64,000 bases of DNA from IMG/VR virus record IMGVR_UViG_3300011008_000003; one strand, 5' to 3'. Under the pieces are notes generated by a model. That model did no database searches. It saw nothing but the letters and a program-made list of their open reading frames with translations, and was not told where the DNA came from. Numbering within the stretch: position 1 is the stretch's first letter; the number at the start of each line of letters is the position of its first letter. Shown piece after piece: positions 6,130 to 32,339 of the stretch. The position numbers and the translations under genes are program-made. The stretch comes from a virus. Its lineage: Duplodnaviria > Heunggongvirae > Uroviricota > Caudoviricetes.

Positions 6130-6785
6130 GTAAAAAGATCTTAACGTAATAAGTTCGCAGCATGATGATCGTTATATATAATATAAATGGTCTGGAAACG
6201 AAAGGATATTACGTTAAGTTTAAGGTAGCATCGGCTACCTGAGTCCTGTTCGCAACCGAACGTTTTTTATTACATAGCCAACCAGGTTTTGACAACCACA
6301 GGCAAGAAATCCAGAATCCGAGCGGTCTTCCTAAAGTCCATGCAACATTGGGCGAGGCACCTAAAGAGTCTGGTCGGGTCGGCCCGAGTCAGCAAGCCGC
6401 ATTCGAAAACCCGAAGCCTGACATTGAAGTATTGCCTAGCGAACAATACATATAGCCGCCATTGGCGACATAGGATGTAGCCGGAGTACAGGATGACCAA
6501 CCCGTAAGCCTATGTGTAAGTCCCGAAGATCGACGACATACGGAATACTCAGTGAAGTATGAATCGGTCGTGAGTCTCAGAAGAGATTTTCAGATTCCTT
6601 CTAAGGCTCATGATCTCAGAGCAGCCGAGCCTCGTGAAGAAGTGAATCAAATTCGACTTTACAAAGTATAAAGATTACGGCACTCCAAGTCGATCAAAAT
6701 CTACTAAGTCGATCGAATCGATCAAAGAATAAAATTTATAATATTATTAATGGGAGGAGTCTGCTCCCAGAAACCATTAAGAAAA
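6130..6785 (+). ncRNA. Candidate large structured non-coding RNA (~650 nt)
   Basis: No credible ORF; TATATT box at ~6118; many stems (TTAACGTAAT/ATTACGTTAA, GGTAGC/GCTACC, GTATTG/CAATAC, ACATAGG/CCTATGT, TGAGTCTCAGAAG/CTTCTAAGGCTCA, TTAATGG/CCATTAA). Confidence 0.6.
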
Positions 6786-6839: not shown

Positions 6840-6928
6840 ACATGTGTTAAGGCTTCGTAATCCTTGGCATATTTCTCATAATAACCAATTAATACGGTCT
6901 CCTATATATCCGGGAGGCCGTATTTTTT
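6840..6928 (+). ncRNA. Candidate small RNA (hairpin + single-stranded linker + terminator)
   Basis: TATATT at ~6831; TGTGTTAAGG/CCTTGGCATA stem; terminator AATACGGTCTCC/GGAGGCCGTATT-T run; no ORF. Confidence 0.5.
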
Positions 6929-7015: not shown

Positions 7016-8635
7016 ATGTCAAAAGAAATTTTGTTCGACGAAAATGCTCGTGTTAAGCTGATGGCCGGCGTAAATATCCTTGCCGATGCCGTATGTAGTA
7101 CTCTCGGTCCTTCTGGCCGTAATGTCATGTTGTCCAACGGTGTAGTCACCAAGGACGGCGTGTCGGTCGCCAAGGATATCAGTATGGAAGATCCGTTTGT
7201 TGATAAGGGTGTTCAGATGGCTGTAGCCGCCGCTTCCAAGACCAACGATGTCGCCGGTGACGGTACGACCTCCAGTGTCTGTCTCAGCCGCGCCATTGCC
7301 CGTGAAGGATTAAAGATTGTTGCAGCCGGCGCCAATCCGACTGAAGTAAAGGCCGGAATCGATAAAGCTGTTTCTGCTATCGTCGACCAGCTCGATAAGA
7401 ATTCCATTAAGGTAAACGACAAGAAGTCCATTGCACAGGTGGGTACTATCTCCGCTAACGGCGATACCGAAATCGGTAATATGATCGCCGATGCCATGGA
7501 CAAGGTTGGTCCGGACGGTGTTATCACTGTCGAGGAATCCAACACTGCAGAAACCGTTCTCGATGTCGTAGACGGTATGCAGTTCAATAACGGTTACCTC
7601 TCCCCGTATTTTGTAACTGACCAGGAAAAGATGGTTGCCGTTCTCGAAAACCCGGCCATCCTTATGTACGAACATAAGATTTCCAGTGTACAGGAATTGC
7701 TCCCGCATCTTGAATATATCGGCCAGTCCGGTAAGCCGTTGCTGATTATCGCAGAAGATGTTGACTCCGAAGCGCTCGCTATGTTGGTGTTGAATAAGCT
7801 CCGTGGCGCTCTAAAGGTCGTAGCTGTCAAGGCTCCTGGCTACGGCGAATCCAGGAAGAACAATCTCCGTGACATCGCGCTGCTTACCGGCGGCCACGTT
7901 GTTTCCGATGAAACAGGTGTTAAGCTTGCCGATGCAGTCACCCAGGAAATCCTTGGTTATGCCAAGACTGTTAAGGTTTCCCGTGACCATACCATTATTG
8001 TCGACGGTGCTGCTGAAAAGGAATCCGTAGACCAGCATGTCCAGACTCTTAAGGCTCAGCTCGCCTCTACCGAATCCGAATATGACAAGGCTAACCTTGC
8101 AGAACGTATTGCACGTCTGGCTGGCGGTGTCGCTGTCATTAAGGTCGGTGCAGCCACTGAAGTAGAAATGAAGGAAAAGAAAGACCGAGTGGACGATGCT
8201 CTCCATGCAACGAAGGCTGCTGTCGAAGAAGGTATTGTCGCAGGCGGCGGAACTGCCCTAATCCGTGCGGCATCCGCTGTCAAGGTCACTGGAGCTACAG
8301 CTGACGAAGAATCCGGTATTAAGATTATCATGAAGGCAGCCGAAGAACCGGCACGCCAGATTGTTAAGAATACCGGCAAGGAACCGTCCGTTGTGGTTAA
8401 CGAAATCATGAAGCGTTCCGGCAACGAAGGCTACAATGCCAAGACAGGTACGTTCGAAGACCTGGTTGAATCCGGTGTTATCGACCCGGTTAAGGTCACC
8501 AAGAACGCTCTTAAGAATGCCGCTTCTATCGCATCTATGATTCTGACGACTAACTGCGTTATCGTTGAGAAGAAGGAAGACAAGGAATGTTCTTGTCACC
8601 AGCCGCAGATGCCGATGATGCCCGGCATGATGTAA
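7016..8635 (+). CDS. groEL: Group I chaperonin GroEL (Cpn60)
   Basis: TLGP, TKDGVSVAK, GDGTT, GYLSPYF, GGVAVIKVGA, EEGIVAGGG; PMMPGMM tail; own TTTACA-N17-TATATT promoter. Confidence 0.97.
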   Translation: MSKEILFDENARVKLMAGVNILADAVCSTLGPSGRNVMLSNGVVTKDGVSVAKDISMEDPFVDKGVQMAVAAASKTNDVAGDGTTSSVCLSRAIAREGLKIVAAGANPTEVKAGIDKAVSAIVDQLDKNSIKVNDKKSIAQVGTISANGDTEIGNMIADAMDKVGPDGVITVEESNTAETVLDVVDGMQFNNGYLSPYFVTDQEKMVAVLENPAILMYEHKISSVQELLPHLEYIGQSGKPLLIIAEDVDSEALAMLVLNKLRGALKVVAVKAPGYGESRKNNLRDIALLTGGHVVSDETGVKLADAVTQEILGYAKTVKVSRDHTIIVDGAAEKESVDQHVQTLKAQLASTESEYDKANLAERIARLAGGVAVIKVGAATEVEMKEKKDRVDDALHATKAAVEEGIVAGGGTALIRAASAVKVTGATADEESGIKIIMKAAEEPARQIVKNTGKEPSVVVNEIMKRSGNEGYNAKTGTFEDLVESGVIDPVKVTKNALKNAASIASMILTTNCVIVEKKEDKECSCHQPQMPMMPGMM

Positions 8636-11864: not shown

Positions 11865-12131
11865 ATGTTGATAAGATGTCAAAAACATGGATTTATCCCG
11901 GTAATGTCTGATTTCGAAATTGATTTCGGCAGAAAACTTGGTGTGACTGAATCATTGATCGCTGTTCCAGTGATGCCTAATAAATTTAAGCTAAATCATT
12001 TGTTTCTGGTTCGTGGATTGTGTATTCCGGTAAGATTTGAAGGTAAAGATTTTAATCTCAATAATCCAGAACAGACAGGTATTCTGGAAGAAATGTTAAA
12101 GACAGTTTTTGCTATCGAAGACCTTAAATAA
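11865..12131 (+). CDS. Family A small protein (leaderless)
   Basis: 15-nt linker TTCTATATTAAGACT; RFEGKDF...FAIEDLK. Confidence 0.8.
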   Translation: MLIRCQKHGFIPVMSDFEIDFGRKLGVTESLIAVPVMPNKFKLNHLFLVRGLCIPVRFEGKDFNLNNPEQTGILEEMLKTVFAIEDLK

Positions 12132-12146
12132 TTCTATATTAAGTAT

Positions 12147-12455
12147 ATGAAAAAGTTTTTAATTGGTAAAGGTTATGACCGTTCGGCGTTGGTTTATGTC
12201 GAGGTAGATCTGTCGAGGAATACAGAGCTTACCGGTAACTTCATGATTCCGACAAAACAATCTATTCTCCGTGGCATCGGCAACGTTTATTATACGTCGC
12301 TGTCTCCCAACGATGAAGGCGGTGTAAGGCTGTACAGGTATGAAACTTATTATGTCAAGTGGAGAGGGAAGATATACCATGTGGACTCACCGGCGAAGTA
12401 TGATGTTCTGGTGAATATTATTAGCACAGATTTTGCCTTAGCCCAGCTCGAATAA
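12147..12455 (+). CDS. Family A small protein (leaderless)
   Basis: 15-nt linker; KWRGKIY...FALAQLE. Confidence 0.8.
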   Translation: MKKFLIGKGYDRSALVYVEVDLSRNTELTGNFMIPTKQSILRGIGNVYYTSLSPNDEGGVRLYRYETYYVKWRGKIYHVDSPAKYDVLVNIISTDFALAQLE

Positions 12456-12470
12456 TTCTATATTAAGAAT

Positions 12471-12743
12471 ATGAAACAGTTAATTATTATGTGGTCTAAC
12501 AACAGTGACAGGATGTCTGTGGAAAAGCTTGGTCCCTTGTGCATTTTTGCCGAAAGGAAGACTCCCTACTTTTATGTTAATGGCGAGCATTCATCGGTGA
12601 TCCGCATCTACCAAGGGGATTGTACCCGTACATACGAATTTGACGGCGTAGTCTATGATCCGATGTCCGCAGGCGATATTATGAATCTCTATTCGGCTTT
12701 GGAATTCTACCTTCTCGAAGTATCTCTTTGCGGGGTTCTATGA
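12471..12743 (+). CDS. Family A small protein (leaderless)
   Basis: 15-nt linker; EFDGVVY + helix. Confidence 0.8.
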   Translation: MKQLIIMWSNNSDRMSVEKLGPLCIFAERKTPYFYVNGEHSSVIRIYQGDCTRTYEFDGVVYDPMSAGDIMNLYSALEFYLLEVSLCGVL

Positions 12744-13009
12744 CTATAGAATTATCTTTTATGACTGGAATATTCGAGACCTATGAAATCTGTACTGGCG
12801 AACAGTACGGCAAGGTTGTCGATCATCTGGGTACCGATTGGTATATCTACGTTTATAACAGGCATCACATCCCTAATCTGGTTTGCCCTTGTACTGTTTT
12901 AAAATGTCGTTATCAAGGTGTAGAATTCGATACGCTGGGTAACAAAGACCAGCTGGCGATGCTGAAGAGAAAACTTGAAGAGGATTTCGCCATTGAACGA
13001 CTCGAATAA
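12740..13009 (+). CDS. Family A small protein (start corrected from 12728)
   Basis: ATGA overlap; close paralogue of 13025; ends DFAIERLE. Confidence 0.8.
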   Translation: MTIELSFMTGIFETYEICTGEQYGKVVDHLGTDWYIYVYNRHHIPNLVCPCTVLKCRYQGVEFDTLGNKDQLAMLKRKLEEDFAIERLE

Positions 13010-13024
13010 TTCTATATTAAGCAT

Positions 13025-13288
13025 ATGCAGATAGAACTTTCGTACCTACCGGGGAGATTCGACCGGTTTGATATTTGTCTGGATCTCGGTATCGAGGCAC
13101 GAAGCAAACGGCCTGAACGCTGGAGTCTTTTTATAAAGAACAACGAAGACATGATTATTAGGGTCTCTCCGATAAGCACGCTGTGTGTCAGGTATGAAGG
13201 GCATGTATATGATTCAGAGGACGACGATCAACTGGCGATTCTGAAACATAAACTTGAGACAGATTTTGCTATTGAACGACTCGAATAA
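13025..13288 (+). CDS. Family A small protein (leaderless)
   Basis: 15-nt linker; ends DFAIERLE. Confidence 0.8.
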   Translation: MQIELSYLPGRFDRFDICLDLGIEARSKRPERWSLFIKNNEDMIIRVSPISTLCVRYEGHVYDSEDDDQLAILKHKLETDFAIERLE

Positions 13289-13303
13289 TTCTATATTATA
13301 AGC

Positions 13304-13603
13304 ATGTGGCTTAAGATTGACAACGACAAGTATTGGGTTAAGGGCGTTACCAAAGAACGCGGAACCTATACTAATGAACTGATTGCCTGGGTACGGTGTA
13401 CTACAGGCCCTTGTTGTACTGTTCCGTTTAACATATATTTGCATATCGGAATTCAGGTTGCCTTTATCGATGAGGAAAACGATATGTGGGGTTGCGGAAT
13501 GTTCTACGGAGATCCCATTCATATACGTGACGAGATAACCTTGTTAAAAATTATAGATCGCATCGACAACGAAACTGCCCTTGAAAAGCTGGAGGCCTTA
13601 TGA
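13304..13603 (+). CDS. Family A-like small protein (leaderless)
   Basis: 15-nt linker; ends ALEKLEAL. Confidence 0.78.
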   Translation: MWLKIDNDKYWVKGVTKERGTYTNELIAWVRCTTGPCCTVPFNIYLHIGIQVAFIDEENDMWGCGMFYGDPIHIRDEITLLKIIDRIDNETALEKLEAL

Positions 13604-13881
13604 AAGTAATTCGTGGAATCGGAAAGAACCGATGTGTACGGACGATAGATTTTTCTCGCCCGCTTAAATACTATGATAATCCGGCCATATCTTGCGGTAA
13701 AGGTTTAGGCATTCCAGTAATAGAAAATCTTGATACTCCCAGCGAAGTTTATTTCTGGGACCATGAAACTATAAGGGCAACCGTCGGCAAGGACAGATAC
13801 GAATTGGTCGAGGATAATCCGTATGTCTATGAGCAGCTGAAGAATAATGTCGAGTTATTATTCGCCTTACATGGGCTTTAA
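13600..13881 (+). CDS. Family A small protein
   Basis: ATGA overlap, GGAGG RBS; ends FALHGL. Confidence 0.78.
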   Translation: MKVIRGIGKNRCVRTIDFSRPLKYYDNPAISCGKGLGIPVIENLDTPSEVYFWDHETIRATVGKDRYELVEDNPYVYEQLKNNVELLFALHGL

Positions 13882-13899
13882 TAATTCTATATTATAGTC

Positions 13900-14349
13900 A
13901 TGGATATTAAAGACGTTTACAAACAACTTCAAAATCATTTTGAGCAGATTAAGTTAAAATACGGCTATCTGCAGAACGATAACGGTTTTAATTTTAGAGG
14001 CGGTGTCTTTTCCGGTAGTATTGCCGGTGGTACCGTTGAAGATGAAGAACCGGATGAAAAGTCTACCGTATTCGAATCCTTCGTTATCAACAAAACCCAT
14101 CGTAAGACACATGATGTTATTTTTTATGTGCAAGCCAAGATTTTATATTACGGCGCCAATTGCGGTATCTTTTCCAATAAGTACATGTATTCCCTTACTA
14201 CTTATCGGAAAGACCGCAAGATTGACCATTTCTATACACAAGAAAAATTATTAAACGAGTTCGACCGAATCTTTAAAGCTGAATACAAACGTGCTGTGCG
14301 GATGAACCAGCAAAAACTCGTTAAACAAATCAACTCCCTCCCTGGTTAA
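13900..14349 (+). CDS. Family B protein (leaderless)
   Basis: TATATT-N6-ATG; ends QINSLPG. Confidence 0.8.
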   Translation: MDIKDVYKQLQNHFEQIKLKYGYLQNDNGFNFRGGVFSGSIAGGTVEDEEPDEKSTVFESFVINKTHRKTHDVIFYVQAKILYYGANCGIFSNKYMYSLTTYRKDRKIDHFYTQEKLLNEFDRIFKAEYKRAVRMNQQKLVKQINSLPG

Positions 14350-16050: not shown

Positions 16051-17031
16051 ATGGCATGTATTACGATTACTAATCAGTTTGACCCGTCGCTTCAGATGCG
16101 GATTGACGATAAAAAGGAATTCGATCTCGGTTCTACGGCAGACTTCACCGACAATAAGATGCTCCCCGTTATCAAGAAGACGATCGCCGATATGGTGCCG
16201 GAAGCACAGTTAAGAGTATCGACTAACTATGAAGCTTGGACGCGGTTTTTCTGTTATACCATGGAATTCAAGGTATTCTATAAAGGTGTCAACGACAACG
16301 AGGATGGCTTTAAGATTAAGGTGGAATTCACTAAGGGTCAGAACTGCGACAAGTACAAGATTGGGTTCGAAGTACCAGTTGTAAACCGTGGTTGGAGAGA
16401 TGCTCTGCTTCCGAACAAGGCTAAGGCATACCGTACTAAGGCTAACTATGCCTCGAGCTCTGATCAGCGTCTGATGTTCTATGATCCGTCTGAGGAAACT
16501 ATTAAGGGATTCCTCAATGCGATGATTACCCCGAACCGCCGCAAGGCTCTCCAGGAATTCATCAAAACTGCCAAAAAAGATGCGATGGAGAGTGCCAACA
16601 CAAAGAACCTGTTGGATATTGAGACCATGGACGTCATTCCGGAACTTGAAACAATCTGCCGTAAGTATTCCATGGGTAAACCGGACATCGTGGAGGAAGC
16701 CTATTGCCGTAAGGTAGTCTTTATTAGCGGCGAATACGGTACCAAGTTCTATCTGAACCTGTTCAAGGAATACATGGCGTTTGATATGACAAAGGGCGCT
16801 GAGTATGTATGCAACAAGTTCGATACCAACTTTATCAGGTTGCTGAAAGGCTTCTTTGCAAATTCCAATTTCGACATTGCCACTCATATCCCGTACGACA
16901 AGAAAGAACAGGTATTCGATATATTAACGCGTATCGGGAATATCTACCAGAAGACCCTTTTCCTTGTGAACTACGAAGCCTGGTATAACGTCGATCCGAT
17001 GTGGAAGCGTAATCCGAAAAACGAGGAGTAA
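16051..17031 (+). CDS. Hypothetical protein
   Basis: Promoter + AAGAGGT RBS, 326 aa. Confidence 0.85.
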   Translation: MACITITNQFDPSLQMRIDDKKEFDLGSTADFTDNKMLPVIKKTIADMVPEAQLRVSTNYEAWTRFFCYTMEFKVFYKGVNDNEDGFKIKVEFTKGQNCDKYKIGFEVPVVNRGWRDALLPNKAKAYRTKANYASSSDQRLMFYDPSEETIKGFLNAMITPNRRKALQEFIKTAKKDAMESANTKNLLDIETMDVIPELETICRKYSMGKPDIVEEAYCRKVVFISGEYGTKFYLNLFKEYMAFDMTKGAEYVCNKFDTNFIRLLKGFFANSNFDIATHIPYDKKEQVFDILTRIGNIYQKTLFLVNYEAWYNVDPMWKRNPKNEE

Positions 17032-31338: not shown

Positions 31339-31659
31339 ATGGCTGGTTATCCGATGAGTAACATTACCATGAAGATGGATGAGATTAACAAACATCTTTA
31401 TGATACTTGTTACATGATGGATGCTGTCTGGAGCGACTTCTATGGGATAAATCACAACAAGAATGGAAAGGTTCATATCAGGTTACTGACTGGGCCTGCA
31501 CCCGGATGGTTCGATGCTGTCACGTGGACAATAGACATCGACGACATCACCGCAGGGAGACTCGACCTGAAACTGCAGGAAATAGTCAAATTCGGCGATA
31601 ACTGGAAACAGCGTCTGATAGGACTCGACACGGAATATGCGATAGAAAACTTGCAATAA
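31339..31659 (+). CDS. Hypothetical protein, C-terminal tag
   Basis: Ends YAIENLQ. Confidence 0.75.
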   Translation: MAGYPMSNITMKMDEINKHLYDTCYMMDAVWSDFYGINHNKNGKVHIRLLTGPAPGWFDAVTWTIDIDDITAGRLDLKLQEIVKFGDNWKQRLIGLDTEYAIENLQ

Positions 31660-31706
31660 AAACTCCACCCAGGGGTTGACAAGAGCGAAATAAAATGGTA
31701 TATTAT

Positions 31707-31842
31707 TGAGGTAGCGCATGCCATAGCGCTTTCCTCAGGGGCGACCTTGTTTGGCCGCGAGTTGCCATTTTTATCGCGGAGTTTGTTGGTCGTCCCAGCC
31801 ATGACAGGGTTTTTCGTTGTTATTACCTGTCATGGCTTTTTT
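31707..31842 (+). ncRNA. Candidate three-hairpin small RNA
   Basis: TTGACA-N17-TATATT promoter; stems AGCGC/GCGCT, GGGGCGACC/GGTCGTCCC with CCGCGA/TCGCGG, terminator GCCATGACAGG/CCTGTCATGGC-T6; no ORF. Confidence 0.7.
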
Positions 31843-31859
31843 GTTTTATTATATCGTAT

Positions 31860-31960
31860 TTGATTTATACGGCTTTAAAATATAATAGGCCTATAGATTA
31901 TACTCTTTTTTAAAACAAGTCTTTAAAACACGTTTACCACAGACCGCCTCGGTCAAAAAA
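31860..31960 (+). repeat. Dispersed AT-rich intergenic repeat
   Basis: AGTCTTTAAAACACGTTTACC shared with 53480 copy. Confidence 0.65.
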
Positions 31961-32027: not shown

Positions 32028-32237
32028 ATGAACGTAATTGTCGAAATCGAAAGCGCACATGCGGAAGAAATCGCCCGACGGTTCAACCAGTGCGAACCTG
32101 AAGGCAAGAAGAACTGGATTCTCAAGAACAAGGGCATCCTTGTCGGGAAGCAGGTATATATCCAGTTGCTCAGTTCGGTTGTTTGTTTGATTTTGAGAAC
32201 AGACGAAAACGCCGTAATCCGTATCGTGAAGCAGTAA
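32028..32237 (+). CDS. Hypothetical protein (start corrected)
   Basis: Promoter + GAGGT RBS. Confidence 0.75.
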   Translation: MNVIVEIESAHAEEIARRFNQCEPEGKKNWILKNKGILVGKQVYIQLLSSVVCLILRTDENAVIRIVKQ

Positions 32238-32339
32238 TCCGCAACAAAAAAATTACAAAATTCTATATTTACAAAGAGGTTCAAATTACTATATTTGAAA
32301 ATACGAAAATAAACAGAACAAATCACAAGGAGATACACC

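Follow-up and report, generated by a model that had tools for sequence, protein, structure and literature searches.

A Predicted, Species-Restricted Small RNA Gene with Loops Complementary to Start Codons in a Jumbo Phage That Probably Infects Fibrobacter

What is encoded in the short stretch of a rumen jumbo phage genome that separates a 106-codon gene ending at position 31659 from a 69-codon gene beginning at 32028? The original prediction had placed here an independently transcribed RNA of three hairpins (31676-31842) that exposes the motif UGCCAU in two loops and might seed on the start codons of Met-Ala mRNAs. Taking transcription signals, fold and conservation together, we conclude that positions 31711-31843 are a real, uncatalogued and species-restricted phage gene for a predicted small RNA. 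The 64,000-nucleotide stretch of DNA that was analyzed, hereafter the window, is part of a phage of ~425 kb; contigs that share its genes reach lengths of 424-428 kb and were recovered from samples of rumen and gut. Its gene content includes SbcCD-like genes, a thymidylate synthase-like gene, GroEL, tRNA-Leu, tRNA-Met and the cow-rumen-2 RNA.

The host of this phage is probably Fibrobacter, a main cellulose degrader of the rumen. When the phage GroEL was used as a query, the top match among genomes was a Fibrobacteraceae MAG, and in a phylogenetic tree the phage GroELs are sister to the Fibrobacter GroEL with a support of 100/99, on a long phage branch. A phage AAA ATPase gene, moreover, matches Fibrobacteraceae DNA at 73-79%. 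A shallow look for a CRISPR spacer linking phage and host found none. Hfq (PF17209) was missing from all four Fibrobacter genomes searched, as was CsrA (PF02599; control searches were positive). One contig of a Fibrobacteraceae MAG (L381, G016 contig 114) bears a promoter and leader of the phage's type and is possibly phage DNA that was binned with the host.

The candidate gene has signals of its own. The near-consensus promoter that had been proposed is indeed there: a sigma-70-type element on the plus strand (31676-31704; -35 box 31676-31681, extended -10 31696-31704) with the form TTGACA-17-TATATT, an 11/12 match and an extended -10 TG, one of a class with 63 phage promoters in the window. 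This phage and its relative G001 have many leaderless mRNAs, with the ATG 6-7 nt after TATATT and no Shine-Dalgarno; in the window, genes of this type lie at 11865-13900, 19108, 24372, 30295 and 51087. By the same start rule the 5' end of the RNA should lie at ~31711, and the predicted transcript (31711-31843, plus strand; start rule, fold z and conservation) is ~133 nt long; the RNA unit that had been proposed is thus present, and 31676-31710, formerly counted within it, is promoter. A 6-bp hairpin recognized from sequence and fold (31661-31677, plus strand) follows the stop of the upstream gene and overlaps the -35 box; its stem is kept despite strain changes and, since it has no U run on the plus strand, upstream transcripts may read into the RNA. 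At the other end stands an intrinsic terminator (31797-31847, plus strand) whose 12-bp stem closes a 17-nt loop and is followed by a U run; the terminator scanner missed it because of the length of that loop. The sense strand contains no frame beyond ATG-CCA-TAG, and to this extent the unit lacks an open reading frame as had been stated; the minus strand holds a frame of 109 codons that has neither a promoter nor a coding signal. A unit with its own promoter and terminator and without a coding frame is what one looks for in an antisense small RNA with loop seeds. Behind the terminator, an AT-rich stretch (31848-31960) is partly matched by contigs from elsewhere, which suggests a repeated element in the phage or its relatives.

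The three hairpins and strong terminator of the original prediction were recovered in a fold of -66.3 kcal/mol (z = -5.87) that none of 200 shuffles equaled in stability. Hairpin 1 (31713-31730, plus strand) has a 5-bp stem and carries UGCCAU (seed 1, anti-AUGGCA) in a loop that proved to be 8 nt long (31718-31725) rather than as first delimited. It is followed by the invariant linker UUUCCUCA (31730-31737, plus strand), which is complementary to AGGA/GAGG Shine-Dalgarno sequences; in ensemble folds from six start sites this linker is unpaired in an RNA that begins at 31711, and pairs with 31707-31711 in a longer or read-through RNA. Hairpin 2 (31738-31796, plus strand) consists of a 9-bp stem, an 8x8 U/G-rich internal loop, a 6-bp stem and a 13-nt apical loop (31761-31773), seed 2, the complement of which is UAAAA-AUG-GCA-AC. 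In the ensemble the two apical loops stay open, the seeds having an unpaired probability of ~0.9. The repetition of the motif was confirmed: TGCCAT occurs at 31719 and 31763, each time within a loop, and a third GCCAT is buried in the terminator stem. When pairs of random phage segments of these lengths (8 and 13 nt) were compared, a common hexamer turned up in 0.74% of trials, and among 129 intergenic hairpin loops of the phage and one relative TGCCAT was found in two, namely loops 1 and 2. No known family, those of C4, CsrB, RNAIII, tRNA and 6S included, was matched by the covariance models of Rfam 15 at gathering score (best E = 8.4), and ARAGORN found no tRNA at the locus.

Judged from 12 strain loci of this phage species, the RNA is under constraint. 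None of the 89 columns of hairpins 1 and 2 is variable, as against 18 of 133 in the next intergenic stretch (p = 7e-5), and the loop conservation that the original prediction had made a test of its reading is seen for both loops among these strains. Flanking genes diverge by 4-19% per strain, and by more in the two loci with a divergent upstream gene; the promoter region has one variable column in 32. The changes seen in the RNA are an insertion between hairpins, one base of the terminator loop, a shortened U run and a compensatory replacement of A-U by U-A in the terminator stem (31806/31828, strain locus L141). As the nearby intergenic promoter-leader stretch at 32238-32339 is almost as conserved as hairpins 1 and 2 (p = 0.12), this conservation shows that there is a function but not which one. 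The early genes at 16051-17031, 31339-31659 and 32028-32237 differ greatly from strain to strain (75-92% protein identity, with numerous variants), in contrast to the near-fixed intergenic DNA, a combination that may reflect diversifying selection.

As far as our searches reach, the RNA occurs in this phage species only. Blastn found no homologue among GenBank phages, and blastn together with a covariance model found none in the related jumbo phages G001 and G154-G158 or in 151 Fibrobacteraceae genomes. Exact and gapped patterns were run against IMG/VR and JGI contigs, and among the matches listed all were unrelated on inspection. Three kinds of sister phage (~40-85% protein identity) gave no match to the RNA, and it was not found downstream of distant homologues of the upstream gene. 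Since it is absent from the sister phages, in two of which (L569, L650) the matching slot is present without it, the RNA was gained recently or by this species alone, and lies in an early block that varies. A further difference in gene order was seen at the tRNA-Leu gene, which in the sister phage G154 is immediately followed by an HNH-like gene (L650 16613-17095) that is absent there in the window phage.

Evidence of expression is weak and consists of contigs only. Those of two RNA libraries from two studies (X15, X16) cover the RNA and stop at the terminator, at positions 31797 and 31808, where a DNA run continues past it; another RNA run (X17) does not cover the RNA. The X15 and X16 contigs also cover bases upstream of the next promoter, DNA that is expected to be silent, so that DNA carry-over or read-through is possible.

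With which mRNAs could such loops pair? The start regions of 1279 genes, called by ourselves in 2.0 Mb (52%) of one complete F. succinogenes genome of 3,843,004 bp, were screened for complementarity. Loop 2 forms at least 10 contiguous pairs with eight of them, in all eight cases over the start codon, where shuffled loops lead one to expect 0.5 genes (p = 0.0025) and random phage 13-mers 0.28 (p = 0.003); for at least 11 pairs the corresponding values are p = 0.0001 and p = 0.0016. Loop 1 is weaker against host starts (p 0.003-0.13). These statistics are post hoc, the loop having been chosen for its anti-start look, and any A-rich anti-AUG loop scores well; since, in addition, three other loops of the 129 score about as high, the tests show that loop 2 is anti-start-like and do not single out a named target.

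The eight partners comprise groEL, htpG, glutamate dehydrogenase (gdh) and five others, with names partly read from N-terminal sequences. With opening costs included, the three strongest partners of loop 2, at ~-12.5 kcal/mol, are one gene without a name followed by groEL and htpG; these two rank 2-3 at -12.3 kcal/mol, and no phage start in the window does better than -8.6. At least 10 pairs are kept in 74 of 98 Fibrobacteraceae groEL starts, serA presents the full loop-2 complement in 14 Fibrobacteraceae genomes, and rpsP, htpG and rsfS offer 12 pairs in several. Several host genes thus fit loop 2 about equally, and the pairing is a modest one of 10-13 A/U-rich bases. Such starts are not evenly spread over the host's genes: ATGGCA is the commonest start in the top decile of codon bias (19/127 vs 41/1152, p = 1.5e-6), and its share is 21% in the top 5%, 15% in the top 10% and 3.6% in the remaining genes. 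Exact 16-nt matches in Fibrobacter were pursued at two loci and set aside, neither being a gene start, and pairing with host rRNA (6-9 nt at most; 16S without a recovered 3' end) is at chance level. The anti-start-codon design of the loops is non-random, the target being a prediction. The proposed action on Met-Ala starts thus receives partial, statistical support, from a loop 2 that matches Fibrobacter starts well above controls and from an AUG-GCA signature that is typical of strongly expressed host genes.

The GroEL starts themselves differ between phage and host. The phage GroELs of this group (window 7016-8635; L570-L575) all begin Met-Ser, and nearly all those of Fibrobacter begin Met-Ala-Lys. 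That the RNA might silence the host groEL while the phage supplies its Met-Ser version is an attractive idea, but co-occurrence lends it no support, as sister phages have the Met-Ser start, yet lack the RNA.

The reading that we prefer, with a probability of roughly one half, is that of an Hfq-independent, loop-seeded, trans-acting antisense RNA that would cover start codons, those of the host first. To go by the signals in the sequence, host sigma-70 polymerase would transcribe it early from its own promoter and stop at its own terminator. Two stable hairpins, as predicted, would then present open loops complementary to the start and second codons of Met-Ala mRNAs. By computed pairing, the 13-nt loop 2 would engage 10-13 nt of A-rich AAAA-AUG-GCA-A(C) starts and loop 1 would serve as a second seed, aided by the anti-Shine-Dalgarno linker; pairing across the AUG would presumably block 30S initiation without any need for Hfq. 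Phage Met-Ala genes may be hit too, more weakly. We rank a damping of host translation first because the pool of best matches is one of highly expressed Fibrobacter housekeeping mRNAs (groEL, htpG, gdh, serA, rpsP). The more sweeping proposition, that the RNA is a general brake on host translation which reads the A-rich leader and AUG-GCA of abundant housekeeping mRNAs, is a good deal more tentative and we would bet against it. If true, such a brake would free ribosomes for phage mRNAs, the starts of which mostly lack that signature, and would amount to host shut-off by a start-codon-seeded RNA without a protein chaperone.

The same antisense mechanism might instead act on a single phage mRNA or a handful of them, such as those of late Met-Ala genes, and so time their expression; we hold this to be unlikely, if the best placed of the alternatives. 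It draws on the window genes with an ATGGCA start, all six of which are present as originally listed (9338(-), 9979(-), 16051, 21718, 32340 and 47671) among 94 phage genes, and on many large, probably late, genes of G001 that begin in the same way, one with an 11-nt match. The six window genes, however, offer the loops only 6-9 contiguous pairs, no window start reaches at least 10 pairs with loop 2, and the four A's that should precede the ATG are rare in the phage (2/94). The best phage candidate, gene 16051, can form a 20-bp duplex with hairpin 1 in this strain, but its codon 3 varies (Cys in ~10 of 56 homologues), as codon 2 sometimes does, and the RNA is invariant; we discarded it as a specific target since the extended pairing is lost in most strains while the RNA is fixed. 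The screen of phage starts covered 64 of 425 kb, and the ~85% of the phage genome outside it leaves room for a phage target.

Slightly less probable again is that the RNA is a decoy or sponge, its repeated UGCCAU loops being read by a host defence protein, a nuclease or a small RNA. Sponges typically show one motif repeated in separate loops, which this RNA resembles; its invariance extends over stems, loops and internal loop, and it lies in a variable early block and is missing from sister phages. We know of no binder of UGCCAU, however, and the host lacks both CsrA and Hfq; the bases by which loop 2 extends the motif, moreover, are exactly those that match an A-rich leader and a codon 3, and the RNA is neither tRNA-like nor a member of an Rfam family. 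The particular sponge that had been suggested, a CsrB-like one, is contradicted by loops without GGA as well as by the lack of CsrA in all four Fibrobacter genomes. Nor is the RNA presumably an ANTAR-type dual hairpin, whose loop pattern, judged by eye, it does not match.

We give little credence to the idea that the unit is the structured 3' end of an upstream two-gene transcript, or a ribosome-trapping minigene composed of GAGG and ATG-CCA-TAG. Between the upstream gene and the RNA there is no terminator with a U tail, RNA-library contigs continue from that gene into the element, and the spacing of GAGG to ATG is that of a normal phage ribosome-binding site; against this, the RNA has its own 11/12 promoter, and the GAGG follows the -10 box by 3 nt (at least 7 nt in all other promoters counted), so that it lies upstream of the start site, and it is paired in a read-through RNA. 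A type I antitoxin to a toxin encoded by the minus-strand frame (31473-31802) is most improbable: that frame has a good ribosome-binding site before its ATG at 31724 (GAGGA-N7-ATGGCA) and stays open for 109 codons in seven of nine strain loci and for 118 in one more, but it has no minus-strand promoter of the phage's class, no called gene on any strain contig and no preference of strain changes for its third codon positions, it is broken in L141, and it runs across the promoter and the upstream gene. Mimicry of an initiator tRNA or anticodon was rejected outright, the loop size and context being unfit and a T arm absent.

Other RNA elements were encountered in these genomes. A candidate RNA at 6840-6928 of the window has the order hairpin-linker-terminator, with a linker complementary to GGTTATTATG starts and at most 11 pairs to a few host starts as well. 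Within ~1 kb of gene-free DNA ahead of the phage groEL (window 6200-6640), positions 6423-6528 match cow-rumen-2 of Rfam at 111 bits, and a similar element occurs in G001 (L421, near 13050); cow-rumen-2 thus has members in jumbo phages of Fibrobacter, where it may be one section of a bigger RNA. G001 also has a terminated, gene-free unit of three hairpins (L010 4785-4910), the first loop of which is anti-Shine-Dalgarno; it is a possible analogue of the 31711 RNA, although the sequences are unrelated. A wider RNA-based layer of translation control in the phage, to which the original prediction extended, is not established.

We found no literature on this phage or RNA. For few small RNAs of lytic phages has a target or mechanism been established, and none of those that we found comes from a Fibrobacter phage. 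Were many highly expressed host mRNAs damped through a shared start signature, the phage would take over its host by a new route, and antisense design without a chaperone would have a natural model; were there a single target, it would be one more phage antisense RNA. In either case, the RNA offers a sharp and cheap test case, since both seeds are invariant, the candidate host mRNAs can be named and the host lacks Hfq.

The RNA belongs to none of the families of RNAIII, PreS, CsrB or C4, and with each it has something in common. Like CsrB/RsmZ, it repeats a short motif across hairpin loops, but the motif is not GGA, has two copies instead of many, stands in apical loops that are UGCCAU or U-rich, and occurs with a host that lacks CsrA. 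The C4 antisense RNA of P1/P7 is processed from the operon that it controls and pairs through its seeds near the ribosome-binding site; it too is a phage RNA with two single-stranded seeds, but its targets are adjacent and fully complementary, whereas here a neighbouring target is lacking and Rfam gives no match. Pairing of a phage small RNA with host mRNAs is exemplified by PreS (LPR1) of lambda and VpdS of VP882 (10.1101/2024.10.31.621285). Like PreS, the RNA proposed here would be a phage-encoded, trans-acting regulator of essential host mRNAs during the lytic cycle; PreS, however, is Hfq-dependent and comes from a temperate phage, whereas this RNA belongs to a T4-like jumbo phage of a host without Hfq and shows a generic start seed twice. 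RNAIII of S. aureus, 514 nt long and chromosomal, has C-rich anti-Shine-Dalgarno loops and proven targets, and differs in this from a phage-borne RNA of ~133 nt with anti-AUG-GCA loops and an unrelated sequence. The repeated-motif loops of RNAIII pair with many mRNA initiation regions and block ribosomes independently of Hfq (PMC2837412), and it is in this same manner, with repeated loop motifs directed at initiation regions and without Hfq, that the phage RNA is proposed to act.
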